From the NCBI GenBank assembly GCA_963734155.1, contig CAVTGG010000004.1, forward strand, positions 323,983 through 387,982: a stretch of 64,000 nt of DNA, read 5' to 3'. The translations under genes and the position numbers were made by a program. Positions 936-19,270 of this stretch are shown piece by piece. Each line of letters starts with the position of its first letter. Position 1 is the stretch's first letter. This DNA comes from an uncultured Acidobacteriota bacterium (GTDB lineage Bacteria; Acidobacteriota; Thermoanaerobaculia; Gp7-AA8). Under the pieces are notes generated by a model. That model ran no database searches. It was not told where the DNA came from and saw only the letters and a list, made by a program, of their open reading frames with translations.

Positions 936-1880
936 GTTTCCGCGATCTTCTCGACCTCGCCTCCGAGCGCCTCGGCGGCTCGGTCGTTTACGCGAACGAC
1001 GACTTTTTCGCCGAGAAAGAAAATCTCATCAAGCCGCACGCGCCCGTGTGGAAAGAGCACGAATACACGGACAAGGGCAAGTGGATGGACGGCTGGGAGT
1101 CGCGCCGCAAGCGCGTGCCCGGCTATGACTTCGCGATCCTCCGCCTCGGCGCGCGCGGCGTCGTGCGCGGCGTCGTCGTCGACACCGCGTTCTTCCGCGG
1201 CAATTATCCGGACTCCTGCTCGATCGAAGGCTCGGTCGACGGCGAGACGTGGACCGAGCTGCTGCCGCAGTCGAAGCTGAAAGGCGACTCGCAAAACGAG
1301 TTCGGCATCGATCAACCGTTCGCGGTGACGCAGCTGCGCTTCAACATCTTTCCCGACGGCGGCGTGGCGCGGCTGCGCGTGCACGGCAACGTCGTGCCCG
1401 ACTGGCGGCTCGTCGGCGGACTCGGAAACGAGCTCGACCTCGCCGCGGCGGAAAACGGCGCCGAGGTGCTGACGTGCAGCGACATGTTCTTCGGCCCGAA
1501 GCACAACCTGATCATGCCGGGCCGCGCGCACAACATGAGCGACGGCTGGGAAACGCGGCGCCGCCGCGGACCGGGCCACGATTGGGTGATCGTGCAGCTC
1601 GCGGCGGAAGGCGACGTGCGGCGCATCGAAGTCGACACGAATCACTTCAAAGGCAACTATCCCGACACCGCGTCGATCGAGGGATCGCTCGACGGCGAGA
1701 CGTGGACCGAGCTCCTGCCGCGGACGAAACTGCAGGCGCACACGCGGCACTTCTTCATCGACGAGCTGCTGACCAGCGGCCCGTTCACGCACCTGCGCAT
1801 GAACGTCTATCCCCGACGGAGGCGTGAGCCGCCTGCGCGTGTGGGGCCGCGCCACCGAGGCCGGCCGGCGCGCCGCGGCG
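932..1880 (+). CDS. alc: Allantoicase with two allantoicase repeats; apparent single-base frameshift near 1810-1815, after which the second RLRVxG motif continues in another frame
   Basis: First repeat ends ...RFNIFPDGGVARLRVHG. Second repeat ends HLRMNVY then shifts frame to PDGGVSRLRVWG (frame of ORF 1824..). A C-run (tatccccgac) is at the shift. Confidence 0.7.
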
Positions 1881-2344
1881 GTGACGCGCGTGAACACGCT
1901 GCTCGATCTTCGCGAGCTGCATCGCGTGTGCGGCTCCGCCGCGATGGGTTTCAGAGTTCGCGGAAAAGCGGCCGTTCAAGTCGTGGGACGACATGGTCGA
2001 AGCGGCGCAGAAGACGTGGATGAAGCTCGACGAAGGCGACTGGCTCGAAGCCTTCTCCGCGCATCCGCGCATCGGCGAACGGAAAGCGGGATGGTCGCAG
2101 CAGGAGCAGTCCGGTACGCGCAGCGCGTCCTGCGGAAACGATGGACGCGCTTGCGGATGCGAACCGCGATTACGAGCAGAAGTTCGGCTTCATCTACCTC
2201 GTCTGCGCCACCGGCCGCGGCGCGGACGAGATGCTCGCGAACTGTCGCGATCGTCTCTCGAATGACCGCGCCGCGGAGTTGCGCATCGCCGCGGAAGAGA
2301 ACGCGAAGATCATCGCCTTGCGGCTGGAGAAACTGGTGCTCTGA
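1881..2344 (+). CDS. uraD: OHCU decarboxylase (2-oxo-4-hydroxy-4-carboxy-5-ureidoimidazoline decarboxylase), interrupted by two apparent frameshifts (~1940 and ~2130); no stop separates it from allantoicase (possible fusion)
   Basis: Motifs are spread over three frames: VCGSA / [26 protein letters not shown]...[14 protein letters not shown] / [22 protein letters not shown]. This is the classic UraD signature. Confidence 0.65.
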
Positions 2345-2652
2345 TGGCCGGAATCACGACGCACGTCCTCGACACCGCGAAAGGCCGCCCCGCCGCGAAC
2401 GTCCGCCTCACGCTGACGCGCGATGACCAGACGCTCTTCGACGGAGCGACCGACAACGACGGCCGCGCGCGTCTCCTCGACCGCGCGGAGCCCGGCACCT
2501 ACCGGCTCACGTTTCACACAGGCGAGTACAACCCGGACGGCTTTTTTCCTGAAGCCACGATCGTCTTTCGCATCGACGATCCCGCGCAGCAGCACTATCA
2601 CGTGCCGCTGCTTCTCAGCCCGTTCGGGTACTCAACGTATCGCGGCAGCTAG
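2344..2652 (+). CDS. uraH: 5-hydroxyisourate hydrolase (transthyretin-like)
   Basis: 102 aa with [12 protein letters not shown] and C-terminal YRGS motif. ATG overlaps the upstream TGA. Confidence 0.9.
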
Positions 2653-2653
2653 T

Positions 2654-2729
2654 CTGGAGTGCGGCGACGCCAGTCGCCGCTCTTGCTTCGCATTGAGTGA
2701 GAGCGGCAACTGGCGTTGCCGTACTCCAG
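2654..2729. terminator. Double-hairpin palindromic element (repeat family 4, outer stem GGAGTGCGG...CCGTACTCC) that exactly fills the gap between convergent stop codons; likely bidirectional terminator
   Basis: ctggagtgcggcgacgccagtcgccgc ... gcggcaactggcgttgccgtactccag. Two inner hairpins are enclosed by an outer stem. Confidence 0.6.
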
Positions 2730-2732
2730 ATG

Positions 2733-4022
2733 TCATGCGGCCCGCCGTCCTTGCAAGATCTTCACGAACGAGCGCGAGCGCAGCTCGTCGAGCGTGAGTC
2801 CCGTCGCCAGCGCTTCGTCTTCCGTCAGCGCGCCGCTGTTGATGCCGCGGATGAAGTAGTTGAGCAGGCCCTGGCCTGTCGCCGCGTCGTCGAAGACGTC
2901 GCCGACCAGCGTCGCCTGCCCCGCCTTCTGCATGAAATTGCGCAGCCGTTCGGTGGCGGCGGCGAGTCCTTCGAGGAAGAAGGAGTAGATCGCGGCGTAG
3001 CGCGTCGGCAGTTGCGCGGGATGGAGATCCCAACCTTGATAGTAGGCGTGCACGAGCGAGTGGCGGATGTGATCGACGTGCAGCTTCCAGGCGCGATGAA
3101 TCGTGTCGCGGTCGCCGATCGGCAGGATGTTCGTCGCGCCGTCGGAGAGCCAGATGCCGGTGCCGGCGTACGCGATCTGCATCATGTGCCGCGCGAAGTC
3201 GCAGGACGGATGGTCCATGCGCTGTTCGTTCGCGGTGATGTTGCAGCTGGCGGTGTAGTCGTACGTGCCGAAATGCGCGGCGACGGCGCGGCCGCGCGCG
3301 GCGTCGAGGAAGCGCGGCAGGTTCGACTCGCCGCGCTCGCTGAGGATCGACTGCGTCGTCTCGATCATGAACTCGAGCCGCAGCGTGTTCGCGGCGAGGC
3401 CGAGCTTCGGCTCGAGCGACTCGAAGATGTCGACGAGCAGCGTGACCTGCTCCGGCAGTTGAATCTTCGGCAGCGTGATGACGAAGCCGGATGGCAGCTT
3501 GCCGTTTGTTTCGCCGAGGAGCGTGGTGAGGAAGATGTCGAACGTGCGGATACCGCGGCGCATCAGCTCCGAGGAGAACGGCTTGATGCGGATGCCGATG
3601 AACGGCGGCAGCGTGCCTTCGCGCAGACCCGTCGCGACCTCGCGCGCGCATCGCGCGGCGTCGCGGTCTTCTTCGTCGTCAGGCCGATTGCCGTAGCCAT
3701 CCTCGAAGTCGATGCGAAAGTCTTCGACCGGCTCGCGCCCGAGCTTCTCCACCACGCGCGACCAGATCGTTTCCGCGTGCGCGTCGGCGACGCCGATCGC
3801 GCGCGCGAACGTGAACGGATCGATGCCGTGCTCGTCGAGGATGCTCCTCCCCTTCTCGCCGAGCTTGCGCGTCGTGTCGGACTTGAACAGCTGCGCGCCG
3901 CCGTACACCGTGTGCACCGGCTGGCGCTCGCCGGCGTTGCCGGGGAAGCGGCGCATGAACGGCACGAGTGCGTCCTGCAGCGGTTTGGAGAGCTTGTCGA
4001 TTTCGTTTTCGCTGAGCGTCAT
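2733..4022 (-). CDS. Malate synthase/CitE(HpcH)-like TIM-barrel family protein (possible glyoxylate-processing enzyme of the purine pathway)
   Basis: 429 aa. FRIDFEDGYG resembles the DFED(S) active-site region of malate synthase/CitE. Start overlaps the puuD-like stop (ATGA). Located in the allantoin/glyoxylate context. Confidence 0.35.
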   Translation of the reverse strand: MTLSENEIDKLSKPLQDALVPFMRRFPGNAGERQPVHTVYGGAQLFKSDTTRKLGEKGRSILDEHGIDPFTFARAIGVADAHAETIWSRVVEKLGREPVEDFRIDFEDGYGNRPDDEEDRDAARCAREVATGLREGTLPPFIGIRIKPFSSELMRRGIRTFDIFLTTLLGETNGKLPSGFVITLPKIQLPEQVTLLVDIFESLEPKLGLAANTLRLEFMIETTQSILSERGESNLPRFLDAARGRAVAAHFGTYDYTASCNITANEQRMDHPSCDFARHMMQIAYAGTGIWLSDGATNILPIGDRDTIHRAWKLHVDHIRHSLVHAYYQGWDLHPAQLPTRYAAIYSFFLEGLAAATERLRNFMQKAGQATLVGDVFDDAATGQGLLNYFIRGINSGALTEDEALATGLTLDELRSRSFVKILQGRRAA

Positions 4023-4024
4023 CA

Positions 4025-4789
4025 ATGCTTCCGAATCACGTGCGCGATCGCCCATCCCACGAGGATGAACACCGCCAGCATCTTCCAGTCATACCCGCGC
4101 ATGGCGATCGGGAAGTGCCCGTTCATCATGATGAGCACGACCGGCCACACGATGTACGTGTTGTGTTTCGAGCGGAACTTGGCGCGGTCGGCGAGGCGCG
4201 GATCGGGCTCGCGCCCTTCGCGTACGGCCGCGACCATTTTTTTCTGCGCGGGGATGATGCGCTCCCAGACGTTCGCGGCCATCGCCGTTCCCATGAGCGC
4301 GCCGATGTGCATGTAGGACGCGCGCGGGCTCATCACGTGCGGCAGCCACCACGCCAGCCCCACCAGCGCGGCGTACGAGATGACGATCAGCAGCGGCTCC
4401 GGCAGCGGCGAGAGCCACAGCAGGTCATACAGTTTCCAGCCGACGAAGATGAGCCCGATGCCCCAGATCGCGGCAGTCGTGAAGTTCTGCTCCGAGACCA
4501 GCAATCCGCCGAAGTAGTAGACGAGGATCAGCAGCAGCAATCCGCTGATCCACGTGATCGCCGCCTCCCACTTGAACCAATGCAGCGTGTGCTCGGACGA
4601 CGGCTTCTTCGTTTTGTTGACGACGTAGAACCCGCCGCTGTGAACCATCCACACCTGATCGGGATCGGTGGTGTGGAAGCGGCGGTCGAGCCAGGTGAAG
4701 TAGTACGTCGCGCCGACCCACATGATGCCGGCGAAGACATGCACCCAGCGGAAGGCGAGGTTGAGCCACTCCTGTACGACGTAATTCAT
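4025..4789 (-). CDS. puuD: PuuD-like urate hydroxylase membrane domain protein (COG3748-type) lacking the C-terminal cytochrome c domain
   Basis: About 255 aa polytopic membrane protein (WVHVFAGIMWVGATYYF...), downstream of xdhB. Similar to the N-terminal membrane domain of cytochrome-c urate oxidase PuuD. Confidence 0.5.
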
Positions 4790-4795
4790 AAGCTT

Positions 4796-4870
4796 GAACG
4801 CAGAGCGCAAAGAACGTAGAAACTAGAAAATTCTCAATTCTACGTGCTGCGTTCTGCGTTTCTACTGTTG
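4796..4870. repeat. Repeat family 2: palindromic (GAACGCA)n hairpin, intercistronic between xdhB and puuD
   Basis: gaacgcagagcgcaaagaacgtagaa...ttctacgtgctgcgttctgcgtttc. Related copies at 54666-54766 and 56779-56869. Confidence 0.8.
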
Positions 4871-7087
4871 TTGCCTTCGCGAGTACTCCGTCAGTCGCGA
4901 AAGGATCTCCTCGTTCGTCGCCGGCAACCGCAGCCGCGCGATGTCTCCGTTCGCGACGGATTGCAGCGCGTTCTTCACCGCGCACCAGATCGAGATCGCC
5001 ATCAGCAGCGGCGGCTCGCCGACGGCTTTGCTGCCGCGGACGTTGATGGGATTGTCGACGTCGATCCAATCGACGTTGAAGACTTCGGGGACGTCGTTGA
5101 TGTTCGGGATCTTGTACGTCGTCGGCGAGTGCGAGAGCAGCACGCCTTTGTCGTCGTACCGCAGCTCCTCGGTGGTGACCCAGCCCATTCCCTGAACGAA
5201 CGCGCCGATGAGCTGGCCGCGGTCGATGCCGGGATTGATCGGCTTGCCGATGTCCATCAGCACGTCGCTGCGCAGCACTTTCAAATCGCCCGTGAACCGG
5301 TCGATCAGCACTTCGGAACACGCCACGCCCATCGTGAAGTAGAGGAACGGCGTGCCGCGGCCGCTGGTCCAGTCCCAGTCGAGGCGCGGCGTGGCGTAGA
5401 ACCCGCGCTCGCCGAGGGAGACGCGCTCGTGATACGCGAGCTTCACCAGCATCTCCCACGAATCCTGCTTGCCGAGGTGCGCCTCGAGCTCGTCGAGGCG
5501 GAAGCGGATCTTGCGCGCCGCATCGACCGCCGCGCTGCCGTTGAGATCCGCCGCGCTCGAGGCCGCGCTCGCCGACGTGTTGTTGTTCTTCTCCGTCGAC
5601 GTGATCATCACGCTCACGCGCTCGACCGGGATGCGCAGCTCATCGGCGACGAGCTGCCCGATCTTCGTGTTCACGCCCTGCCCCATCTCCGTCGCGCCGG
5701 TCGAGACCTGCACGCTGCCGTCGAGGTAGATGTTCACGAGCGCGTTCGCCTGATTGAGAAACTTCGTGTTGAAGGAGATGCCGAACTTCACCGCGGAAAT
5801 CGAGATGCCTTTGAGCTGCGTCTGTGACGTCGCGTTGAACGCGCGCACCGCTTCGACGCGCGCGCGGTAGTCGCAGCGCTCGGGCAGCTCGGTGAAGAGC
5901 CGAGGCAGCGTGTTGTTCGGAACCACCTCTTCATACGGCGTGGTGTTGCGCGTCTCGACGCCGTAGCAGTTCACGCGGCGCACATCGAGCGCGTCTTTCT
6001 TCAGGAACGCGGCGATCTCTTCGATGATGTTCTCCATCGTCGCCACGCCTTGCGGTCCGCCGAAGCCGCGGAACGCGGTGTTCGGAGGCATGTTCGTGCG
6101 GCAAACCGTGCCGCGGATGTCGATGTTCGCGATGTAGTACGCGTTCTCCGCGTGGGTCATGGCGCGGGCCATGACCGCCGGCGAGAGATCGGCGTACGCG
6201 CCGCCGTCGGAGTAGAAGTCGATCTTCATCCCGACGATCTCGCCGCTGCGCGTGAATCCGACGCGATAGCGGTTCTGAAACGCGTGACGCTTTCCCGTCA
6301 CGTGCATGTCGGTGTCTTTGTCGTAGACGATGCGCGTGGGCCGCTTCGTTTTCTGCGACACGAGCGCAGCCATCGCCGCGGGATGCGTGGCCTGCGCTTC
6401 CTTGCCGCCGAACGCGCCGCCCATCCGCTTGGTCGTGACCACGACCTGATTCATCTGCAGTCCCAGCAGATGCGCGATGACTTCCTGCACCTCGGTCGGA
6501 TGTTGCGTCGAGGACAGCACGTGCATCGCGCCGTTTTCGCCCGGCTGGATGATCGCTGCTTGCGATTCGAGATAGAAGTGATCCTGGCCGAGGTTGCGGA
6601 ACACGCCTTCGAGGACATGCTCGGCGGAGGCGAGCGCAGCGTCGGCATCGCCGCGGCGGATGTAGCGCGTCTCGCCGATGAAGCTCTGCGCGGCGATGGC
6701 GTCGTCGATCTCGAAGATCGGCGTGAGCTCCTCGAATTCGATTTTGACGGCGCGCTTCGCCGCGTCGACCGCTTCGCGCGTTTCCGCGGCGACGACGACG
6801 ATCGGCTGGCCGCGGAACGTGCAGTGGCCGTCGTCGACGAGGAGCGGCTCGTCGGCGATGATCGGACCGAGGCGGTTGTGATGCAGGTCTTCGTGCGTGT
6901 AGACGTGCGCGAGCTTCTTCGCTTCGCTCACATCGAGCGAGACGATGCGCGCGTGGGCGTAGGGCGACCAGACGAAGTCGACGACGAGCTCGCCATGCAG
7001 CGGCGGCAGGTCATCGACATACATCGACTCGCCGGTCACGTGACCGCGCGCGGAATCGTGCGGGATGTCCTTGCCGACGGAGGGCAT
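4862..7087 (-). CDS. xdhB: Xanthine dehydrogenase molybdopterin-binding (large) subunit
   Basis: 741 aa from MPSVGKDIPHDSARGHVTGE. Shows the aldehyde-oxidase/xanthine-dehydrogenase MoCo domain pattern. The ORF-track extension upstream of this Met is GC-rich read-through. Confidence 0.9.
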   Translation of the reverse strand: MPSVGKDIPHDSARGHVTGESMYVDDLPPLHGELVVDFVWSPYAHARIVSLDVSEAKKLAHVYTHEDLHHNRLGPIIADEPLLVDDGHCTFRGQPIVVVAAETREAVDAAKRAVKIEFEELTPIFEIDDAIAAQSFIGETRYIRRGDADAALASAEHVLEGVFRNLGQDHFYLESQAAIIQPGENGAMHVLSSTQHPTEVQEVIAHLLGLQMNQVVVTTKRMGGAFGGKEAQATHPAAMAALVSQKTKRPTRIVYDKDTDMHVTGKRHAFQNRYRVGFTRSGEIVGMKIDFYSDGGAYADLSPAVMARAMTHAENAYYIANIDIRGTVCRTNMPPNTAFRGFGGPQGVATMENIIEEIAAFLKKDALDVRRVNCYGVETRNTTPYEEVVPNNTLPRLFTELPERCDYRARVEAVRAFNATSQTQLKGISISAVKFGISFNTKFLNQANALVNIYLDGSVQVSTGATEMGQGVNTKIGQLVADELRIPVERVSVMITSTEKNNNTSASAASSAADLNGSAAVDAARKIRFRLDELEAHLGKQDSWEMLVKLAYHERVSLGERGFYATPRLDWDWTSGRGTPFLYFTMGVACSEVLIDRFTGDLKVLRSDVLMDIGKPINPGIDRGQLIGAFVQGMGWVTTEELRYDDKGVLLSHSPTTYKIPNINDVPEVFNVDWIDVDNPINVRGSKAVGEPPLLMAISIWCAVKNALQSVANGDIARLRLPATNEEILSRLTEYSRRQQQ

Positions 7088-7119
7088 GGCGAAGAGCGTG
7101 ATTGTACGATGATCTCGAA

Positions 7120-7142
7120 CCCGTGCCCGTGCCCGCACGGGA
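7120..7142. repeat. Repeat family 1: short (GCCCGT)n hairpin in the divergent xdhB / sigma-factor promoter region
   Basis: cccgtgcccgtgcccgcacggg. Confidence 0.6.
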
Positions 7143-7169
7143 GTGTGTCGCGAATGATTTGTTCTCGGG

Positions 7170-7742
7170 GTGCCGTCTAACCGGGCAATGGACGAACGAT
7201 TTCTGGTCCAGCGGATGGTGCGCGGCGATGAGGGGGCGTTCGAGGAGTTCTTCAACGCCAACTTCGGGCCGCTGTTCCGGTTCGCGCTGCCGCGCGTCGG
7301 CGGGGACGCCGACGTGGCCGAGGAAGTGGTGCAGCTGGCGCTGTGCCGCACGGTGCGGAAGCTGGCGACGTATCGCGGCGAGGCGTCGCTGCTGACCTGG
7401 CTCTGCACGATCTGCCGCCACGAGATTCACGACTGGTTCGAGAAACAAAGGAGGGTTCCGCCGATGGTCGAACTGGTGGAGGATCTGCCGGAGGTGCGCG
7501 CGGCGCTCGATTCGCTGGACGCGGTGCAGAAGAAAGAGACCGCGCGGCTCGTGCAGGTCGTGCTCGACCGGCTGCCGAACCGCTACGGCGACGCGCTGGA
7601 GTGGAAATACATCGAAGGGCTTTCGGTCGCGGAGATCGGCGAACGCCTGGGCGTGGCGACGAAGGCCGCGGAGTCGCTGCTGGCGCGCGCGCGGGTGGCA
7701 TTCCGCGACGCGTTCCAAGCGGTGCAGGGAGTGCAGGCATGA
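7170..7742 (+). CDS. ECF (sigma-70 family, group IV) RNA polymerase sigma factor, FecI-like
   Basis: Region 2 (FEEFFNANFGPLFRFAL...AEEVVQLAL) and region 4 HTH (LSVAEIGERLGVATKAAESLLARAR). Followed by FecR and a TonB-dependent receptor. Confidence 0.85.
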   Translation: MPSNRAMDERFLVQRMVRGDEGAFEEFFNANFGPLFRFALPRVGGDADVAEEVVQLALCRTVRKLATYRGEASLLTWLCTICRHEIHDWFEKQRRVPPMVELVEDLPEVRAALDSLDAVQKKETARLVQVVLDRLPNRYGDALEWKYIEGLSVAEIGERLGVATKAAESLLARARVAFRDAFQAVQGVQA

Positions 7743-8737
7743 AAGAAGACAACGAAGATCAGATCGCGGAGCTGCTGCGGCTCGCCGGCCCGCGTCCGCG
7801 GATCAGCGACGAGCGGACGGCGCGCGTGCGCGCGGCGGTGCGTGACGAGTGGAAGCGCAACGTGCGCAAACGAACGGGCGTGACGTGGCTGGCGATCGCG
7901 GCCGCCGCGGTGATTGCGATGATTCTGTTCGTGCCGCGCGCGAACAAGACGCCTGCTCCCGTGCCGGCGGTCGTCGTGGCAGAGGTGCAGGCGATCCGCG
8001 GCAACACGATTCCCGCGCTGCACGCGAGCGCTACCGTCGTTGCATCGACGAAGATCGAAACGCTCACCGGCAGCACGCTCTCGCTCGATTGGAACGGCGC
8101 GACGCTGCGCCTCGGCGAAGGGACGCGCGTGCAACTCGATGCGCAGACGGCCTCGCTCGAACGCGGAACAATTTATTTCGACAACGGCGGCGGGACGCCG
8201 CCGGGCCAGCCGGCGAGGACGCCGGCGTTCCCAGGTCGGAACGCCGCCGTCTCGGCGGCTGGTCAGGCGGCGTCCCGCCGCCTCGGCATTGCGATCAACA
8301 CTCCTTTCGGCGAGATCCGCGACATCGGAACGCAATTCGAAGTCCGCCTCGATGAACATTCGTTGCGCGTACGCGTGCGCGAAGGGCGCATCGATCTGCG
8401 TCGCGGCAATCAGGTTGAAGTCGCAGAGGCAGCGACCGAGTTGATTGCGGATCAAACGTCCGTGCACAAGAACGCGATCGCAATCAGCGGCGCGGAGTGG
8501 AAGTGGATCGAAGACGCCGCGCCGCCGCTGCGGCTCGAAGGGCTCACGCTGCGCGAGGCGGTCACGCGCGTCGCACGCGAAAAGGGCTTGCGCGTCGAGC
8601 TGCAGGGCGTCGACGGCAATGTGAAGCTGCACGGCAGCGTGGAGTTCACGCCGGATGAAGCGCTCGAGGCCGCGACTGCCGCGACGTCGGCCTCCTATCA
8701 GATCAGGAACGACACGCTCATCGTGAGAAAACACTGA
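7739..8737 (+). CDS. FecR-family anti-sigma factor / transmembrane sensor
   Basis: ATG overlaps the sigma stop (ATGA). N-terminal anti-sigma segment, one TM helix (WLAIAAAAVIAMILFV) and a periplasmic FecR domain (ATLRLGEGTRVQLDAQTASLERGTIYFD). Confidence 0.8.
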   Translation: MKEDNEDQIAELLRLAGPRPRISDERTARVRAAVRDEWKRNVRKRTGVTWLAIAAAAVIAMILFVPRANKTPAPVPAVVVAEVQAIRGNTIPALHASATVVASTKIETLTGSTLSLDWNGATLRLGEGTRVQLDAQTASLERGTIYFDNGGGTPPGQPARTPAFPGRNAAVSAAGQAASRRLGIAINTPFGEIRDIGTQFEVRLDEHSLRVRVREGRIDLRRGNQVEVAEAATELIADQTSVHKNAIAISGAEWKWIEDAAPPLRLEGLTLREAVTRVAREKGLRVELQGVDGNVKLHGSVEFTPDEALEAATAATSASYQIRNDTLIVRKH

Positions 8738-10978
8738 ATGATCCTCCTCATCCTCATGCTGTACGCGGGTCACCCGCTCGTCGAGGCGCTGCGCGATCTC
8801 GAATCGAAGGGGCTCCGCCTCGTGTACAGCGACGACGTCGTGACGCGCGAGATGGTCGTGAAGAGCGAGCCGCGCGCGACCGAACCGCGGCGCGTGCTCG
8901 ACGAGCTGCTGCGCGAGCACGGGCTCACCACGACGCCGGGGCCGCGCGGAACGCTGCTGATCGTCAAAGCGAAAATCGAGGAAGCGGCGCCGGCGCCACA
9001 GTTCCCCATGCCGAAGACGCTCGCGGAGATCGTGGTGACGCCGAGCCGTTTCGAGCTTCTCGGTGAGGAGCCCGAGCAGCGGCAGTTTCTGAGTCGCGAA
9101 GAAGTCCGCCGCGTGCCGCACATCTCCGACGATTTCTATCGCGCGATCCGCCGCATCCCCGGCGCGGCGTCGGACGATCTCACGGCGCGCTTCAACATCC
9201 GCGGCGGCGAAGAAGACGAGGCCGTGATCCTCCTCGACGGCGCGGAGATCTACGACCCGTTTCACGTGAAGGACATCGTGCGCGCGTTCTCGATCATCGA
9301 CACCGAGGCCATCGGGTCGGTCGACATCCTGACGGGCGGGTTCCCGGCGGAGTACGGCGGGCGGATGAGCGGCGTGATCGACATCGCTTCGCTCGCGCCG
9401 TCGGAGACGAAGACCGAGATCGGCGCGAGTCTGCTCAACCTGCACGGGCTGTCGCAGGGAACGCTGGCGGACGGGCGCGGGCAGTGGCTGCTGTCGATCC
9501 GCCGCGGATATCTGCACGAACTGCTGGAGCTGGTCGACTCGACGAACGACGTCGATCCGCGTTACTACGATCTCCTCGCCAAGCTGCAATGGACGCTCGG
9601 CGCGAAGAACGTTCTCTCCGCGCACGTCCTGGCCTCGCGCGACGTGCTGCGCGTCGAGGAGTCGAGCAACGACGACGTGAAGGCGACGTATCGCGATACG
9701 TACGCGTGGCTGAATCTGCGCAGCACTCCGCGCGACGGGCTGCTCCTGCAGAACGTGCTGCAGTACGGCACGTCCGGACGCGACCGGCACGGCGTGTACG
9801 AAGACAACGCGCAGTTCGGAAACGTGAAGGACGTCCGCGACTTCGACTTCGCGGGCCTGAGGAGCGACGCCTCGTACAACGTCTCGGCGCGGAATCTGAT
9901 CAAGGGCGGCGTCACGATCCGGCGTGCGAAGGCGCGTTACGACTACGACGGCGAAGCGCTGATCGCAGGGACGCTGCTCGAGCTCGGCGCGCCGCCGCGA
10001 CGCATCAGCAATCACGCGCACACCAGCATCACGTCGACCGAGGTCGCCGTGTATGCGTCGGATCGATTCAAGGCCGGCGAGCGCGTGATCGTCGAGACGG
10101 GCGCGCGGTGGGAGACGGAGAGCCACACGCCCGACGGCGGGCATTTCTCGCCACGTATCAACGCCGCCTGGATGGTCTCGCCGGCCACGACGGTGCGCGC
10201 GGCGTGGGGACATTTCTATCAGCCGCAGGGCGTGTATGAGCTGCAGGTGGAAGACGGCGTCACGAATTTCTTCCCCGCCCAACGCGCGGAGCATCGCGTG
10301 ATCGGCGTCGATCAGCAGTTCGGACGGGCGCTCACCGCGCGCGTGGAGTTGTACGACAAAGTCTTCACCGATCCGCGGCCGCGCTTCGAGAATCTGTTCG
10401 ATCGCATCGTCGTGTTTCCGGAGCTGCGCGACGACCGCACGCGCGTCGCGCCGGAGCGCTCGACCGCGCGCGGCGCCGAGGTGCTGCTGCGCCACGACTC
10501 GCAGGGCGCGCTCAGCGGCTGGATCCACTTCACGCGCGCGACGGTGACGGATGAAATCGGAGGCCGCCGCGTGCCCCGCGCGTGGGATCAGCGGAACGCG
10601 GCGACGTTCTGCGTCAACTACAAGATCGGCGCGTCGTGGAACTTCAACGTCGCCGCGACGTGGCACAGCGGCTGGCCGTCGACGCCGCTGCTCGTTTCGG
10701 CAACGGGCGCGCAGCTGCAGAGCGAGCTCGGTCCGCTGCGCTCGGAGCGGCTGCCCGCGTACCGCCGCGTCGACGTCCGCGCGTCACGCCGCGTCGCCAC
10801 GGCCGGCGGGACGTTCACGTTTTTTGTCGATGTCTTCAACGCGCTCAACCAGTCGAACGCGAGCAGCGTGAACGGCTTCCTCGTCGAGCAGCAAAGCGAC
10901 GGCACGTTCTCGACGAAGCGAATCGAAGACCCGGTGGTCGGCGTCGTTCCGTCGTTCGGCATTTCCTGGCAGTTCTGA
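8738..10978 (+). CDS. TonB-dependent receptor with N-terminal STN (signalling) domain, FecA-like transducer
   Basis: STN domain (LVEALRDLESKGLRLVYSDD...), plug domain, 22-strand barrel region and C-terminal ...GISWQF. Start directly abuts the FecR stop. Confidence 0.8.
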   Translation: MILLILMLYAGHPLVEALRDLESKGLRLVYSDDVVTREMVVKSEPRATEPRRVLDELLREHGLTTTPGPRGTLLIVKAKIEEAAPAPQFPMPKTLAEIVVTPSRFELLGEEPEQRQFLSREEVRRVPHISDDFYRAIRRIPGAASDDLTARFNIRGGEEDEAVILLDGAEIYDPFHVKDIVRAFSIIDTEAIGSVDILTGGFPAEYGGRMSGVIDIASLAPSETKTEIGASLLNLHGLSQGTLADGRGQWLLSIRRGYLHELLELVDSTNDVDPRYYDLLAKLQWTLGAKNVLSAHVLASRDVLRVEESSNDDVKATYRDTYAWLNLRSTPRDGLLLQNVLQYGTSGRDRHGVYEDNAQFGNVKDVRDFDFAGLRSDASYNVSARNLIKGGVTIRRAKARYDYDGEALIAGTLLELGAPPRRISNHAHTSITSTEVAVYASDRFKAGERVIVETGARWETESHTPDGGHFSPRINAAWMVSPATTVRAAWGHFYQPQGVYELQVEDGVTNFFPAQRAEHRVIGVDQQFGRALTARVELYDKVFTDPRPRFENLFDRIVVFPELRDDRTRVAPERSTARGAEVLLRHDSQGALSGWIHFTRATVTDEIGGRRVPRAWDQRNAATFCVNYKIGASWNFNVAATWHSGWPSTPLLVSATGAQLQSELGPLRSERLPAYRRVDVRASRRVATAGGTFTFFVDVFNALNQSNASSVNGFLVEQQSDGTFSTKRIEDPVVGVVPSFGISWQF

Positions 10979-10990
10979 TCGGAGAGTCCT

Positions 10991-12223
10991 ATGCGCAAAG
11001 CGATTCTGTTTCTCACGGTGATGCTGTTCACGTTCGCGGCGGCGAAACGCCGCTCGGCCACGTCTCCCGGGCAAGTGACGTACAACAAGGAAGTGGTGCG
11101 CATCCTCCAGGAGCATTGCCAGAGCTGCCACCGGCCGGGCGACATCGGGCCGTTCTCGCTGATGACGTATCGCGACGCGGCGGCGATGGCGCCGCAGATC
11201 AAGCTGATGACGAAGCTGCGCAAGATGCCGCCGTGGAAGCCGGCCGAGCACGTCGGCGACTTCGTCGGCGCGCGGCGACTCACGCAGCAACAGATCGACA
11301 CGCTCGCGCAGTGGGCCGACGCCGGCGCGCCGGAAGGGCGGCCGGAAGATCTGCCGCCCGCGCCGGAGCCGAAAGGCGACTGGATCCTCGGCGCGCCCGA
11401 CATGATCCTCGGCATGCAGAAGGACTTCACTCCGCCCGCGAATCGCGACGAGTACCGCTGCTTCTCGATTCCGGTGCCGGCGAACGACGACTTGTGGATC
11501 TCGACGATCGACTTCCGTCCCGGCGACCGCGCGACCGTGCATCACATCGTGCAGTATCTCGATCCCACCGGCGCGAGCGCGCAGCTCGACCGGGATGGCA
11601 GCGGCTTCACCTGCTTCGGCGGGCCGCTCGTCGACGACGCCGACGTTCTCGGCGCGTGGTCGCCGGGCGGACGTCCGACGCCGCTGCCCGACGGAACGGC
11701 CATCCGCCTGCCGAAAGGCGCGCGCGTGCTGATGCAGGTGCACTATCACCCGCACTTCGGCAAAGTCGGCGTGGACCGCACCGAGATCGGCCTCTACTTC
11801 GCGAAGTCGGAAGTGAAGAAGGTGATGCGCTACGACGCGGTTCTGAACACGCGACTCTTCATCCCCGCCGGCGCGGCGAATCAGCGCATCGAGGCGACGG
11901 CGACGCTCGGCGCCGACATTGAGATGGTGTCGATCTACCCACACATGCATCTTCTCGGCAAGAGCATCCGCGCCGACGCGATCCTCCCCGACGGCACGGT
12001 CCTGCACCTGATCGACATCCCGCAGTACGAGTTTCAGTGGCAGGGACAGTACGTCTACAAAGCTCCCGTCAAGCTGCCGAAGGGCACGCGGCTGCTCATC
12101 GAGAGCTTCTACGACAACTCGACGAACAACCTGCAGAACCCGAACTCGCCGCCGAAGGACGTACGGTGGGGCGAGGCGAGCACGGATGAGATGTGCATCG
12201 CGCTGTTTGGGTACACGAGTTAG
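10991..12223 (+). CDS. Periplasmic cytochrome c domain fused to a PHM/DBH-like type-2 copper monooxygenase core (Cu2_monooxygen-like)
   Basis: Signal peptide, CQSCH heme-c motif, then CuH-site-like HH (VHHIVQY) + H (VHYHPHF) and CuM-site-like HxH (YPHMHLLGK) + Met (DEMCIAL), in the order and spacing of peptidylglycine alpha-hydroxylating monooxygenase. Confidence 0.6.
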   Translation: MRKAILFLTVMLFTFAAAKRRSATSPGQVTYNKEVVRILQEHCQSCHRPGDIGPFSLMTYRDAAAMAPQIKLMTKLRKMPPWKPAEHVGDFVGARRLTQQQIDTLAQWADAGAPEGRPEDLPPAPEPKGDWILGAPDMILGMQKDFTPPANRDEYRCFSIPVPANDDLWISTIDFRPGDRATVHHIVQYLDPTGASAQLDRDGSGFTCFGGPLVDDADVLGAWSPGGRPTPLPDGTAIRLPKGARVLMQVHYHPHFGKVGVDRTEIGLYFAKSEVKKVMRYDAVLNTRLFIPAGAANQRIEATATLGADIEMVSIYPHMHLLGKSIRADAILPDGTVLHLIDIPQYEFQWQGQYVYKAPVKLPKGTRLLIESFYDNSTNNLQNPNSPPKDVRWGEASTDEMCIALFGYTS

Positions 12224-12229
12224 GAAACA

Positions 12230-12358
12230 CCCCTCATCCGGCCTTCGGCCACCTTCTCCCCGCAAGCGGGGAGAAGGGCTCTCGCGGCACCTCTCGTCGA
12301 GTGCCCCTCTCCCCGCTTGCGGGGAGAGGGTGGCGCGAAGCGCCGGGTGAGGGGCCGT
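12230..12358. repeat. Composite inverted repeat of two ~50-nt inverted copies, each with an internal CTCCCCGC-N4-GCGGGGAG hairpin, between convergent genes; probable bidirectional terminator / REP-like element
   Basis: acccctcatccggccttcggccaccttctccccgcaagcggggagaagggc ... gcccctctccccgcttgcggggagagggtggcgcgaagcgccgggtgaggggc. Confidence 0.7.
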
Positions 12359-12360
12359 GC

Positions 12361-13755
12361 CTACACGACGTCGTAGTAGAACCGCTGCAACACGTTCTCC
12401 GCGAGCTGCAAACGGAAGTCGCGCGATCCGCGGACGTCGCTGATCGGCGCGACTTCTCCGCGGGCGATCTCGCCTGCCTCGGCGAACGTTTCGCGGGCGA
12501 GCGTTTTGCCGGCGAGGAACTGCTCGGTCTTCGGCAGGCGCAAAACGACCGGCGCAACGCCGCCGTACGCGATGCGGATCGAGTCGACGCGGCCGTCATT
12601 GCGGCGCATCAGCATCGCGGCAGTGAACGACGAAATATCGAGATGGCTGCGCTTCGAGATCTTGTAGAGGCGCAGCGTCTCGCTCTTCGACGGGAGCGGG
12701 ATGACGATGCGGGTGATGATCTCGTCGGGCTTGAGGTCGAGCGTCTTGTAGCCGAGGTAGAAATCGGAGATGGCGACGGTGCGGGTGCCGGAGAGGCCGG
12801 TCAATTCGAGCGATGCGTTCGTGACGAACAGGAACGGGAGCGTGTCGGCGATCGGCGAGGCGTTGGCGATGTTGCCGGCGAGCGTGCCGGCGTTCTTGAT
12901 CTGCGGCGAGCCGAAGCGATCCATGATCGGCGCGAGCTCGGGGATGAGCTCGCGCACCGCGACTTCGAAGTCGGCCAGCGACGCGCGTCCGCCGACGACG
13001 AGCGCGCCGTCGACCTGGCGAATGTCGCCGAATCCTTCCACTGCATCGAGCGAAAGCATCGCCTCGGCGACGAAGCCGCGCTTGTTGCACCAGACGCCGA
13101 AGTCGGTCGCGCCCTGCACGATCACGCACTTTGCATGTTCGGATTTGAACCGGATCGCGCTTTCGAGGTCGGTGGCTTTGAAGAAATTCTCGATGCGCAC
13201 TTCATCGCGCTCGTGTTGTTGGATCGCTTCAACGATCGGCGCGGACGGATAGAGCTGCGCGATCTTCGGCTGCTCTGTCGCTTCGAGTGCGGCTTTGATG
13301 ATCGACGTGTAGCCGGTGCAGCGGCAGAGATTTCCGGTGAGCGCGGCGCGGACGTCGTTCTCGGTCGGATGCGACGTGCATTCGTACATGCCGGCCATGG
13401 CCATGATGAAGCCGGGCGTGCAGTAGCCGCACTGCGCGCCGTGGCAGCGCACCATCGCGTCCTGCACCGGCGTCAGCTCGCCGCCGCGCGCGAGTCCTTC
13501 GACCGTGACGATGTGCGTGCAGTCGAGCTGAAAGAGAAATTGGATGCAGGAGTTGATCGGGCGGTAGGACAGCGCGCCGTTCTCGCGACGCCCCACGAGC
13601 ACCGTGCACGCGCCGCAGTCCCCTTCTTCACAAACGATCTTCGTGCCGGTCTCGCGCTGGTCGTAGCGGAGAAATCGCGAGAGCGTCTGAAACGCCTGCG
13701 GCGCCGCGATGCGATGCGGGACGCCGTTGATGTGGACGAGGAGATGGTCGCGCAC
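12361..13755 (-). CDS. xdhA: Xanthine dehydrogenase small subunit (2Fe-2S ferredoxin + FAD-binding domains)
   Basis: CEEGDCGACTV, CHGAQCGYCTPGF and CRCTGY iron-sulfur motifs, then an FAD-binding PCMH domain. Confidence 0.9.
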   Translation of the reverse strand: MRDHLLVHINGVPHRIAAPQAFQTLSRFLRYDQRETGTKIVCEEGDCGACTVLVGRRENGALSYRPINSCIQFLFQLDCTHIVTVEGLARGGELTPVQDAMVRCHGAQCGYCTPGFIMAMAGMYECTSHPTENDVRAALTGNLCRCTGYTSIIKAALEATEQPKIAQLYPSAPIVEAIQQHERDEVRIENFFKATDLESAIRFKSEHAKCVIVQGATDFGVWCNKRGFVAEAMLSLDAVEGFGDIRQVDGALVVGGRASLADFEVAVRELIPELAPIMDRFGSPQIKNAGTLAGNIANASPIADTLPFLFVTNASLELTGLSGTRTVAISDFYLGYKTLDLKPDEIITRIVIPLPSKSETLRLYKISKRSHLDISSFTAAMLMRRNDGRVDSIRIAYGGVAPVVLRLPKTEQFLAGKTLARETFAEAGEIARGEVAPISDVRGSRDFRLQLAENVLQRFYYDVV

Positions 13756-13773
13756 GGTGCGCGCGATTGTAAT

Positions 13774-14781
13774 TCAGCGTGCCGCGCGGCGCTTCGTGAT
13801 CACCGGCTGCAGCGCCGCGCGCCACTCGCCAACGACCGTCATCGCCATGATCCTGTACGTCGACGGCGGTAGCACCGCGACGGCGGCGGCCGTGTTCGGC
13901 GAAGCAAAATCGACCCGCGCCAACAACGTGCCCTTCCCGGCCCAGAACCCGTTCGCGTCCGGCGTCAACACGAGGTGATACGCCGGCACGCGATAGACCG
14001 CGAGCTGCTTTCCCGTCCGATCGAACCGCCGCACGTCGTTGAACGTCGCGACGAGAAAATCGCCGTTCGGCAGTTGCCGGATGCCGGCCGCTCCTTGCGC
14101 ATCCTCGGGGAGCACGAACAGGTCGGGGGCCGCGCGATTCGTGCAGATGTCGAAGGCACGAATGCGCCGCGCGTTGCTCAGCCGGTCGTCGTTGAACGCG
14201 ATGCCCAGCGTCCACGCCACTGTGCACTGGTCCGCGAGCAGCTCGATGAACCGCGCGCCGTTGTATCGCGCGCCCAGCTCCATCGTCACCGGAGGAAGGT
14301 AATACGCGCCTGCAACTTTGCCGTCGCGGCTGAATCGGATGAGCTTGGGAAACTCCCGCTGGTAGGCGCCTTCCTCGGCGAGCAGCAACTCGCCGGATCG
14401 CATCTGCAGAAGGTCCCCGGGAAAAACGAGATTGCGGTCTTTCAGGTACTGGGCGCTGACCGTGCGCGCATCGGGCGAAACGACGACGAATGCGTCGGAC
14501 TTCAGCGCGTTCGAGTTCGTAAAGGCCGCGTAGAGAACGCCGCCGGTGACGAGGAAGCCGCGGGATGGCGGGAACTGGTCCGTTTCCGAACGATGCCCGT
14601 AGAAGTCTTTCTGCGCTCCCGACGAATCGAAGATCGTCATGTCGACGTGCGGGACGCAGCGTTCGGGAATGCAGTTGGCCAATTGATCGGATTGCACGAT
14701 GACGTCGCCGCGCTGAAAGGTCTGGGCATTCGCGGCAACGACGCAGAGGAGGAAGGCGAGAACGACGGAAGCGCGGTGCAT
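13774..14781 (-). CDS. Hypothetical secreted protein (signal peptide; possible beta-propeller fold)
   Basis: Starts MHRASVVLAFLLCVVAANAQ. Sits upstream of xdhA on the same strand. No recognisable catalytic motif. Confidence 0.5.
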   Translation of the reverse strand: MHRASVVLAFLLCVVAANAQTFQRGDVIVQSDQLANCIPERCVPHVDMTIFDSSGAQKDFYGHRSETDQFPPSRGFLVTGGVLYAAFTNSNALKSDAFVVVSPDARTVSAQYLKDRNLVFPGDLLQMRSGELLLAEEGAYQREFPKLIRFSRDGKVAGAYYLPPVTMELGARYNGARFIELLADQCTVAWTLGIAFNDDRLSNARRIRAFDICTNRAAPDLFVLPEDAQGAAGIRQLPNGDFLVATFNDVRRFDRTGKQLAVYRVPAYHLVLTPDANGFWAGKGTLLARVDFASPNTAAAVAVLPPSTYRIMAMTVVGEWRAALQPVITKRRAAR

Positions 14782-14833
14782 AAAGTTATTTTTAGCACCG
14801 AACACCCGAGTTCGCAACGGGGAGAAATGGAAA

Positions 14834-15265
14834 TCAGCCGATCGAGACCAGCTCAAGCTCGAACGTCAGATCTTTTCCCGCCAGCGGATGATTCGCGTCG
14901 AGCGTGACCTCGTCGTCGTCGAGCGCCGTGACTTGCACGTTCGCGCTGCTGCCATCGGGGAATCCGATGCGCAGCATGTCGCCGACGTCGACGGCAGTGT
15001 CGGGCGGCATCTGATTGCGCGGAACGCTGAAGACCAGTTCTTCCTGGCGGTCGCCGTACGCATTCGCGGCGGCGATGGTCTCCGTCTTCCTGTCGCCGAC
15101 GCTCATGCCTTCGACCGCGCTCTCGAATCCGGGAACGACTTCGCCGGCGCCGAGGGTGAAGCTGATGGGATCACTGCCGGCGGAGCTGTCGAATTCCGTT
15201 CCGTCGGAAAGCGTGCCGCGGTAGTGCACGGAGACAGAGTCGCCGCGTTGTGCCTGTTGGGCCAT
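14834..15265 (-). CDS. FKBP-type peptidyl-prolyl cis-trans isomerase (SlyD/FkpB-like)
   Basis: GDSVSVHYRGTLSDGTEFDSS...FTLGAGEVVPGFESAVEGM, the classic FKBP motif. ATG start is Met9 of the listed ORF; the GTG extension lies inside the hairpin. Confidence 0.8.
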   Translation of the reverse strand: MAQQAQRGDSVSVHYRGTLSDGTEFDSSAGSDPISFTLGAGEVVPGFESAVEGMSVGDRKTETIAAANAYGDRQEELVFSVPRNQMPPDTAVDVGDMLRIGFPDGSSANVQVTALDDDEVTLDANHPLAGKDLTFELELVSIG

Positions 15266-15273
15266 GGAAGCTC

Positions 15274-15339
15274 CGTGGAGGACAGGCACTCCTGCCTGTC
15301 CGGCGTGTGCGAGGACAGGCAGGAGTGCCTGTCCTCCAC
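15274..15339. other. 27-bp perfect inverted repeat (12-nt loop) between the RRM-protein stop and the FKBP start; strong RNA hairpin
   Basis: gtggaggacaggcactcctgcctgtcc-N12-ggacaggcaggagtgcctgtcctccac. On the minus-strand transcript a U-run precedes it and GGAG plus ATG follow. Confidence 0.7.
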
Positions 15340-15352
15340 CAAAAAAGCGGGC

Positions 15353-15832
15353 TTACAAGCTGCGCTTCTTGCCGCGGATGTTGCGTCGGCTGCCTTTGGC
15401 CTTGCCGCCGCCACCACCGTAGCCGCCACCGCCGCCGTAATCGCCGCCGCCACCGCCGCCGCTGTAGTCGCCACCACCGCCGCCATAACCACCGCCGCCG
15501 CCGTAGCCACCACCACCGCCGCCGTAGCCGCCGCCACCGCCGCCGCCGTAACCTCCGCGGCCACCGCCGCCGCCAGCGCCGCGAGGACGATCCTCGGCCT
15601 GGTTCACGCGCAGCGCACGTCCACTGAGCTCGTATCCATTGAATTTCTCAATCGCTTTCGCGGCGTCTTCATCCGACGTGAACTCGACGAACGCGAACCC
15701 TCTCGGCCGGCCGCTCTCGCGATCGGTTGGCAAAAACACGTCGCGGATCTCGCCGATCTGCGAGAAAAGCGTCTGCACTTCAGCACGGGTCGTGTTGAAG
15801 TCCAGATTGCCGACAAACACCTTCGATGCCAT
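15353..15832 (-). CDS. RRM-domain RNA-binding protein with Gly/Tyr-rich C-terminal tail
   Basis: RNP-2 (KVFVGNL) and RNP-1 (RGFAFVEF) motifs, then a (GGYGGGG)n tail. Confidence 0.85.
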   Translation of the reverse strand: MASKVFVGNLDFNTTRAEVQTLFSQIGEIRDVFLPTDRESGRPRGFAFVEFTSDEDAAKAIEKFNGYELSGRALRVNQAEDRPRGAGGGGGRGGYGGGGGGGYGGGGGGYGGGGGYGGGGGDYSGGGGGGDYGGGGGYGGGGGKAKGSRRNIRGKKRSL

Positions 15833-15965
15833 TTTCCTTCATCACCTTTCTGCCGGACGGCACTCGCAAACATCGCGCCTGTGCTCCGGTCACGGAAAAC
15901 AATCTCACGAGAGAGGTGTTATGAGCAACCTTCGTGCTCAATGTCGCGACGCGCGGAGGCGCCGG

Positions 15966-19144
<3,179 letters not shown>

Positions 19145-19150
19145 GGTCAC

Positions 19151-19270
19151 CGCTCGATCCCGCGCCCGTGCCCGTGCCCGTGCCCGAGCCCGAACGGCAA
19201 AGCCAAGCATGTGGCGCGGGCTGCGCTTCGCGTTTCGGGCACGGGCACGGGCACGGGCGCGGGCACGGGT
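19151..19270. repeat. Repeat family 1: long palindromic hairpin built from (GCCCGT)n / (ACGGGC)n hexamer runs, intercistronic between glgE and treS
   Basis: cccgcgcccgtgcccgtgcccgtgcccgagcccg...cgggcacgggcacgggcacgggcgcgggcacggg. Confidence 0.8.

Follow-up and report, generated by a model that had tools for sequence, protein, structure and literature searches.

What is a set of FecIRA-like signalling genes doing between two genes of purine catabolism? In a 64-kb stretch of DNA from an uncultured bacterium of the Thermoanaerobaculia (Acidobacteriota), hereafter the window, four plus-strand genes lie between the xanthine dehydrogenase genes xdhB and xdhA, which are both on the minus strand. They encode an extracytoplasmic function (ECF, group 4) sigma factor, a FecR-like anti-sigma factor, a TonB-dependent receptor and a secreted enzyme in which a cytochrome c domain precedes a PHM/DBH-type dicopper monooxygenase, here called CuMO. 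All positions are those of the window. An open reading frame (ORF) listing combined with Pfam and NCBIfam profile searches places the four genes where an earlier note on this DNA had put them, on the plus strand and opposite in orientation to flanking genes that TIGR02965 and TIGR02963 identify as xdhB and xdhA (Table 1). We propose that the cassette is an operon for cell-surface signalling of the FecIRA type to which a periplasmic enzyme has been added, a reading that we hold to be probable though well short of certain. On this reading, the cassette owes its place among the purine genes to its history, with no functional tie to purine catabolism.

The sigma-factor gene and its upstream region indicate how the cassette would be expressed. 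The earlier note began this gene at GTG 7170. The true start is probably ATG 7188 and GTG 7170 is unlikely: public records (NCBI/ENA) carry the product of 184 aa, and the N-terminus MDERFLV is common to two related loci (L001 and L005). When the stretches 5' of the sigma gene were aligned across the cassette loci, a conserved motif emerged, GAA(T/G)GA-N16-C(G/T)TC(T/C)AA(C), which by its sequence has the form of a typical ECF promoter, with a GAA-type −35 and a CGTC-type −10 element. In the window it ends 7 nt before ATG 7188, a position from which the mRNA would be leaderless or nearly leaderless. We scanned the window and 171 loci (4.7 Mb, both strands) with the pattern GAA(T/G)GA-N15-17-(C/T)NTC(T/C)AA. 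The motif occurs only once in the window. Across the loci it precedes the sigma gene in every cassette locus and in L168, which carries the sigma/FecR/receptor triad without CuMO, and only three matches lie elsewhere, each of them weaker. Eleven loci in all have it at the equivalent position 5' of sigma (L001, L003/L004/L092, L005, L006, L008, L009, L088, L089 and L168). Within the window it stands before neither xdhB nor xdhA. Consensus scans of positions 6900–14000 for sigma-70 promoters and terminators gave no promoter, for xdhB or otherwise, and terminators at chance level only, and an Rfam search over positions 1–20000 returned sub-threshold miRNA-like matches to hairpins and no riboswitch.

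The four genes are coupled as tightly as had been described. The sigma stop overlaps the FecR start by 4 nt (ATGA, 7739–7742), no nucleotide separates the TGA of FecR from the ATG of the receptor gene at 8738, and the CuMO gene begins at ATG 10991 after a gap of 12 nt that contains GGAG. The promoter motif, this coupling and a hairpin beyond the CuMO stop fit a single autoregulated unit in which all four genes would be co-transcribed.

The second and third genes encode the two envelope components expected of such a system. The FecR-like protein consists of a cytoplasmic N-terminus of about 45 residues, a transmembrane helix (residues 45–65, the only such segment in a hydropathy scan), a periplasmic FecR domain and a C-terminal STN-like domain. 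The match of its last 88 residues to Pfam STN is borderline, at 28.2 bits against a cutoff of 28.4, and a PDB sequence search with the protein gave no match. In the receptor, the TonB box is followed by a plug and a 22-strand-type barrel. Pfam STN does not match the receptor N-terminus even at E ≤ 10. The predicted fold of this region, however, superposes on the signalling domains of PupB, FecA (1zzv, 2d1u), PupA (2a02), FpvA and HasR, and also on secretin N0 domains. The receptor is thus a TonB-dependent transducer by its predicted fold, with a signalling domain that sequence models miss. Of the description of this protein as an STN-TonB-dependent receptor, the plug, the barrel and the fold of the signalling domain hold up, and the Pfam STN model gives no match. 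An attempt to infer the substrate from receptor homology failed, CirA being the best and only PDB sequence match (E 0.002 over 70 residues).

We note in passing that the FecR and receptor genes of the window share one reading frame and are separated by a TGA alone (8735–8740, AAACAC TGA ATG ATC), such that read-through would fuse the two proteins. A 1-nt offset in L001 shows that this frame relation is not conserved, and it is probably incidental.

What kind of enzyme is CuMO? A Sec signal peptide spans residues 1 to about 19, MRKAILFLTVMLFTFAAA. Profile scores are uneven: Cu2_monoox_C matches above its cutoff (26.7 bits against 23), Cu2_monooxygen falls below it (21.3 against 30), the heme domain reaches 19.9–23.1 bits against Cytochrome_CBB3 (cutoff 27), and no NCBIfam model matches at E ≤ 0.01. 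The residues that would bind the cofactors are invariant in 22 homologs of 46–94% identity. They comprise the heme c ligands C43-x-x-C46-H47 and M79 (in MPPWK), the CuH site H184, H185 and H251, and the CuM site H318, H320 and M401. In a HMMER alignment to PHM the five histidines correspond to H107/H108/H172 and H242/H244, while M401 was equated with PHM Met314 through the invariant DEMC motif in the Cu2_monoox_C match and not by a residue-level alignment. An AlphaFold (AF2) model, with a predicted local distance difference test score (pLDDT) of 82, retrieved PHM (E 1.5e-16) and human DBH (E 2.8e-15) in a Foldseek search of the PDB, and the alignments of 277–305 columns recovered both domains. 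The earlier designation of this protein as a cytochrome c-copper monooxygenase therefore stands on the invariant ligands, the fold and Cu2_monoox_C, while Cu2_monooxygen and Cytochrome_CBB3 both stay below cutoff.

CuMO resembles peptidylglycine alpha-hydroxylating monooxygenase (PHM) and dopamine beta-hydroxylase (DBH), two of the copper type II ascorbate-dependent monooxygenases (PHM/DBH/TBM), in its two-domain beta-sandwich fold and in keeping the CuH (three His) and CuM (two His and one Met) ligands. It differs in that it is bacterial and exported by the Sec route, has only about 20% identity to them and carries an N-terminal cytochrome c. Another difference concerns substrate binding. In structures of PHM with substrate, Arg240 binds the C-terminal carboxylate of the substrate. 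In CuMO this position is Tyr316, and in many homologs it is Ala (AYRVHTHHLGK versus SI(Y/A)PHMHLLGK in the profile alignment); a peptidyl-glycine substrate is therefore unlikely. The fused class-I cytochrome c most likely feeds electrons to the CuH site in place of ascorbate. In our judgement the odds are even that CuMO is the first PHM/DBH-type monooxygenase from a bacterium in which a fused cytochrome c takes over the role of ascorbate. In the literature searched we found no description of cytochrome-c-fused bacterial enzymes of the PHM/DBH type, and no paper on bacterial Cu2_monoox family members or on a link between them and TonB/ECF systems. The family itself is large, with more than 4,500 CuMO-like database proteins in Acidobacteriota, Planctomycetota (including Singulisphaera) and Rokubacteria/Methylomirabilota.

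Table 1. Features of the cassette and of the genes around it, in window coordinates.
Feature	Position	Strand	Size or residues	Basis of assignment
DUF6986 protein gene	2733–4055	−		Weak similarity to malate synthase TIM barrel and HpcH/HpaI aldolases
puuD-like gene	4022–4810	−	262 aa	Urate_ox_N/DUF989, match over profile positions 3–267 of 295
xdhB	4862–7087	−		TIGR02965, 873.6 bits (cutoff 849.5)
Putative ECF-type promoter	7152–7180	+		−35-like GAATGA, 16-nt spacer, −10-like CGTCTAA
ECF sigma factor gene	7188–7742	+	184 aa	Sigma70_r2 37.8 bits and Sigma70_r4_2 45.3 bits (both above cutoff); TIGR02937 77.2 bits (cutoff 42.9)
FecR-like anti-sigma factor gene	7739–8737	+	332 aa	PF04773, 31.5 bits (cutoff 24)
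TonB-dependent transducer gene	8738–10978	+	746 aa	Plug 39.3 bits; TonB_dep_Rec_b-barrel 62.7 bits
Receptor signalling domain	8762–8971	+	residues ~9–78	Predicted fold
Receptor TonB box	9020–9046	+	residues 95–103	LAEIVVTPS, invariant
CuMO gene	10991–12223	+	410 aa	Secreted; cytochrome c plus PHM/DBH-type dicopper monooxygenase
Spacer between convergent CuMO and xdhA stops	12224–12360	.	137 bp	One ~130-nt near-perfect hairpin
xdhA	12361–13755	−		Fer2, Fer2_2, FAD_binding_5, CO_deh_flav_C; TIGR02963 445.8 bits
Gene for 360-aa secreted protein	13774–14856	−	360 aa	Upstream of xdhA

We propose the following model by analogy with FecIRA, PupIRB and HasISR. An extracellular ligand would bind the TonB-dependent transducer, the N-terminal signalling domain of which would contact the C-terminal STN-like domain of FecR. 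The ECF sigma factor would then be released or activated, and it would transcribe its own four-gene operon from the GAATGA-N16-CGTCTAA promoter, creating positive feedback. CuMO would most probably hydroxylate the ligand once imported, or else a closely similar compound in the periplasm, so that the ligand is degraded, released or made transportable.

How does this arrangement compare with known systems? With the classical ones (FecI/FecR/FecA of E. coli, PupI/PupR/PupB and FpvI/FpvR/FpvA of Pseudomonas, HasI/HasS/HasR of Serratia) it has in common the sigma factor, the single-pass FecR with an STN-like C-terminus, the transducer with a signalling domain ahead of its TonB box, and adjacent, co-oriented genes. 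In the classical FecIRA case, however, fecIR is under Fur control and stands apart from fecABCDE, which depends on FecI, whereas here the sigma gene seems to belong with all the others to one autoregulated operon that has a single ECF-type promoter. Furthermore, the cassette lacks genes for an ABC importer or binding protein and ends in a copper monooxygenase, its receptor escapes both the Pfam STN and the siderophore-receptor models, the cytoplasmic part of its FecR is short, and its host belongs to the Acidobacteriota.

The closest parallel comes from copper uptake. MbnI/MbnR/MbnT triads adjoin MbnP/MbnH in methanobactin and related copper-uptake loci, so that there, too, a triad with an N-terminally extended transporter lies beside genes for periplasmic c-heme redox and copper-binding proteins, an ABC importer not being the sole neighbour (PMC3621798). 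The enzymes themselves differ. MbnH is a di-heme MauG-like peroxidase (cytochrome c peroxidase) and MbnP is its separate copper-binding partner, whereas CuMO is a single polypeptide with one heme c domain fused to a PHM/DBH fold that is not MauG-like, and methanobactin genes are missing. Likewise, CuMO does not match the MbnP/MbnH models TIGR04039 and TIGR04052 named in PMC3621798. The earlier note had considered the combination undescribed. This holds for the enzyme partner, which we did not find in the literature searched, but not for a triad beside periplasmic redox and copper proteins, given the description of MbnIRT with MbnPH. What is new is therefore the partner enzyme, the single-operon, self-promoted organisation and the phylum; the combination of TonB-dependent transducer, FecR and ECF sigma factor is of a known kind.

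A looser parallel is found among TonB receptors paired with a processing enzyme, such as PfeA with the esterase PfeE and PiuA with the hydroxylase-like PiuC in P. aeruginosa. In these pairs, as in the cassette, the gene for an outer-membrane transporter is followed by that for an enzyme thought to act, outside the cytoplasm, on the compound that is imported. PfeE and PiuC are nevertheless an esterase and an Fe/2-oxoglutarate oxygenase, they are under two-component or Fur regulation, and neither copper monooxygenase nor cytochrome c is involved.

How did the cassette come to lie between xdhB and xdhA? We scanned metagenome contigs with XdhA as the anchor and mapped the loci by tblastn. The arrangement xdhB, cassette, xdhA, with the cassette opposite in orientation to both flanks, is kept exactly in L001, L003/L004 and L005 (CuMO 72–94% identical) and occurs in at least eight independent metagenome contigs (L001, L003/L092, L005, L088, L089, L091, L170), a recurrence which shows that it is not due to chance. 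Where XdhA is at least 87% identical the cassette is present (L088, L089, L091, L092). At 68–79% identity, by comparison, about 20 loci have a contiguous xdhA-xdhB-puuD-like-DUF6986 operon with xdhA-xdhB gaps of 6–143 bp. These outgroup loci share with the window the upstream TreS/RRM/FKBP genes and, on the other side, the puuD-like and DUF6986 genes. Since the nearest outgroup is contiguous within identical flanks, we conclude that a single lineage-specific insertion entered a formerly contiguous operon. Inversion was considered as the cause of the split and rejected: the outgroup flanks have the same order and orientation, and a simple insertion fits. The G+C content is about 65% across the window, and composition does not shift at either border of the cassette. 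On the gene order, xdhA and xdhB would have been transcribed separately ever since the insertion. xdhB now heads an xdhB/puuD-like/DUF6986 unit apart from xdhA, and xdhA is the last gene of a unit that also includes the FKBP gene and the gene for a 360-aa protein.

The claim that xdhA and xdhB are normally adjacent and were parted by the cassette thus applies to this lineage, in which the outgroup loci are contiguous, but not more widely. Among 51 loci with both xdh subunits, the two genes adjoin in 31 and lie more than 1 kb apart in 19, and no cassette is present in 16 of the latter. In part, relatives thus show what the earlier note had named as a refutation, namely splits in the absence of the cassette. 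Insertions seem to have entered the xdhA/xdhB junction repeatedly.

The cassette also exists away from xdh. The same four genes with the promoter motif are present in L006, L008 and L009, where CuMO is 58–64% identical, and receptor and CuMO identities fall in parallel from locus to locus (91/94, 77/77, 71/72, 53/64, 51/60 and 50/58%). A neighbor-joining tree of 120 receptor homologs, midpoint-rooted and hence weak evidence, places the three confirmed triad-only cases in one large clade and the CuMO-linked receptors in three others. It suggests an old receptor-CuMO linkage followed by loss or paralogy. The cassette is an old, portable unit within the Thermoanaerobaculia. The question raised in the earlier note, whether it travels as a unit, is accordingly answered yes by the intact copies and the parallel divergence, with the qualification that the triad also occurs without CuMO.

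What, then, are the alternatives to a signalling operon with its own ligand-processing enzyme? One reading, which overlaps our own, commits itself to a metal chelate as the ligand. The receptor would import a metallophore, whether a ferric siderophore or, as in the case of MbnT, a chelator of copper, and CuMO would destroy or modify the chelator in the periplasm to free the metal, or would itself be a copper client of the uptake. This is a reasonable sub-hypothesis, yet on balance an unlikely one. The FecIRA-type systems characterised so far are overwhelmingly iron-carrier systems (PMC9249621), MbnIRT triads stand beside MbnP/MbnH, CuMO requires two copper ions and one heme, and the lack of any inner-membrane transporter or binding-protein gene with the cassette in any locus would fit release of metal in the periplasm. 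Set against this, the receptor scores only 24.6 bits against a cutoff of 223.5 with the siderophore-receptor model TIGR01783, CuMO falls outside every NCBIfam model, and siderophore or chalkophore biosynthesis genes, Fur-type regulators and MbnP/MbnH-type genes were not seen in the loci. Less likely still is that CuMO is co-transcribed with the triad without acting on the receptor's ligand, as a housekeeping or stress enzyme of the envelope or periplasm that has come under ECF control, while the triad works alone, as in L168, L169 and L171. Triad-only loci are indeed common and form the large receptor clade, CuMO paralogs have quite different neighbours, and L090 has lost CuMO and kept the triad. 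What speaks for a shared function is the linkage of receptor and CuMO over deep divergence (receptor identity down to about 50%), in three clades and with a spacer of about 10–15 nt in most loci, a stability that would be unusual for an unrelated gene.

The position of the cassette raises a further alternative, which the earlier note had voiced as a link to urate or purine handling. To the left of DUF6986 lie genes for an amidohydrolase, an allantoicase, an OHCU decarboxylase and an HIU hydrolase, which together with the xdh genes place the cassette inside a complete purine-catabolism island. It could have been recruited into this island, with CuMO or its cytochrome c serving the PuuD-like urate oxidase, or with CuMO oxidising a purine-derived compound imported by the receptor. 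The position is kept in every sampled member of the clade (CuMO identity 72–94%), and the divergent sigma and xdhB promoter regions, only about 100 bp apart, leave room for co-regulation. Moreover, PMC4562309 describes a cytochrome c domain, probably essential, as present in every full-length DUF989 protein from a purine context, and the PuuD-like protein of this xdh operon lacks this supposedly invariant C-terminal domain. This protein may represent a form of urate oxidase that does without the cytochrome or one that has a separate partner. However, cassette-free contiguous relatives also have a cytochrome-less puuD-like gene, abutting or overlapping DUF6986, so the absence of the heme domain is not tied to the presence of the cassette. 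In addition, the xdh association goes back to one evolutionary event that did not recur, the same cassette is found in non-purine contexts (L006, L008, L009), L090 keeps the triad at the xdh site without CuMO, the ECF motif precedes sigma and not the xdh genes, and other lineages split xdhA and xdhB by unrelated genes such as that for an OPT transporter. We therefore consider a purine function very improbable. Co-option in the stricter sense, with CuMO as the oxidative or electron partner of the cytochrome-less PuuD-like protein, or as an oxidant of a urate-derived compound, and with the signalling genes coupling purine breakdown to an external cue, is in our view the least credible of all.

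Several observations weigh against the FecIRA-type operon with an added enzyme that we favour. Most CuMO homologs at or below 52% identity are not beside any sigma/FecR/receptor triad, and the triad occurs without CuMO in L168, L169 and L171 and, inside the xdh locus, in L090; CuMO is therefore an accessory of the system and not an obligatory part. In the genome with the triad-only locus L168, no ECF motif is found 5' of the solo CuMO (L050). The receptor has no informative similarity to characterised transporters. Its export is also in question: at the receptor N-terminus encoded in the window (8738–8770) the leader before the conserved mature motif YAGHPL is M-ILLILML, about eight hydrophobic residues with no charged n-region, and the ORF cannot be extended 5', as the in-frame TGA of the FecR stop precedes it. 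The short leader recurs in three relatives (L001, L088, L091), whereas others have canonical leaders of 18–30 residues (L005, L006, L008, L090). Finally, everything beyond sequence and fold is inference. Decay of the cassette was considered as an overall explanation and set aside, given that all four ORFs are intact and the short leader was kept while the receptors diverged to 68–72% identity.

If the signalling-operon reading is correct, it extends FecIRA-type trans-envelope signalling to the Acidobacteriota, with a cargo that is perhaps not an iron carrier and a periplasmic oxygenase as the output. It also points to a large uncharacterised family of cytochrome-c-fused PHM/DBH proteins that have their catalytic ligands intact and an electron donor probably unlike that of the animal enzymes. 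The cassette-linked subgroup offers the best handle on what these enzymes oxidise, since their substrate is what the neighbouring receptor should bind. More generally, a place within a pathway island can mislead, as the xdhA/xdhB junction is filled by different, unrelated genes in different lineages.

The solo CuMO genes have neighbourhoods of their own. In Bryobacterales/Terriglobia and some Planctomycetota, a gene for a thioredoxin-like protein of about 200 residues (motif DCPNS) lies directly 5' of CuMO (L052, L055, L065, L069, L073, L074), and its product may be an alternative electron or copper-handling partner. In other Thermoanaerobaculia (L010–L023), MacB-type ABC genes and the gene for an amidohydrolase of about 530 residues come first, CuMO follows, and the gene for a hybrid histidine kinase closes the row.

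Among the flanking genes, TIGR02963 is the best match of xdhA, which lies slightly under the cutoff of 467 and has all four expected domains. A TACAAT hexamer about 13 nt 5' of the xdhB ATG is common to L001 and L089. PuuD-like proteins without the cytochrome c domain were also seen in cassette-free relatives, as noted above, and DUF6986 is the constant last gene of the xdhA-xdhB-puuD-like operon in many Acidobacteriota loci (including L095–L120), which makes it a candidate for an unassigned step of purine or glyoxylate metabolism. The gene for the 360-aa protein ends 18 nt before xdhA, and its product matches nothing in Pfam or NCBIfam. Several diverged copies of this family (32–42% identity) surround the locus in relatives (L088, 5356–9034; L092, 16855), and in L003/L092 one copy is placed between the cassette and xdhB.

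The spacer between CuMO and xdhA folds into a hairpin with an RNA minimum free energy of −126 kcal/mol (z = −13.3 versus shuffles), formed by an inverted repeat (12248–12284/12298–12334) and containing two small palindromes, TCTCCCCGC(AA/TT)GCGGGGAGA. It has no second copy in the window, a 34-nt probe from one arm detected none in 169 loci, and the hairpin is not conserved in relatives. It could be a bidirectional terminator or else a palindromic (mobile) repeat element. In L001, whose CuMO is 94% identical, the same junction (11234–11594) holds 17 tandem 21-bp units around the palindrome GTTCGCACGTGTGAAC, which is absent from the window, and the xdhB/sigma spacer (6167–6230) holds (GATGGCA)x4 with an inverted copy. 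In L003, L088 and L089, by comparison, the gene ends overlap at the CuMO/xdhA junction and there is no spacer. Both cassette borders are thus hypervariable and gather palindromic repeats.

Finally, the xdh junction takes other forms elsewhere. In L090 (7041–9906), FecR and receptor genes lie beside xdhA with no CuMO remnant, and the contig ends before sigma. In L170 (11598–16842), seven small plus-strand genes without annotation come after a full cassette and occupy the place of xdhA, which is more than 8 kb away. In L133 and L151, xdhB is not within 10 kb. A second lineage (XdhA 55–58% identical; L126–L128, L132, L134, L135, L137, L138, L140, L146, L154, L166) has xdhA and xdhB on the same strand 4–9 kb apart, and the gaps inspected (L128, L134, L135, L137) hold unrelated opposite-strand genes, among them those for an OPT-type transporter of about 650 residues and a secreted protein of 650–750 residues, together with small toxin-antitoxin-like ORFs. 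In L121 (897–2441), a close relative like L090 and L170, a gene for an S10-type serine carboxypeptidase at the same site is convergent with xdhA.

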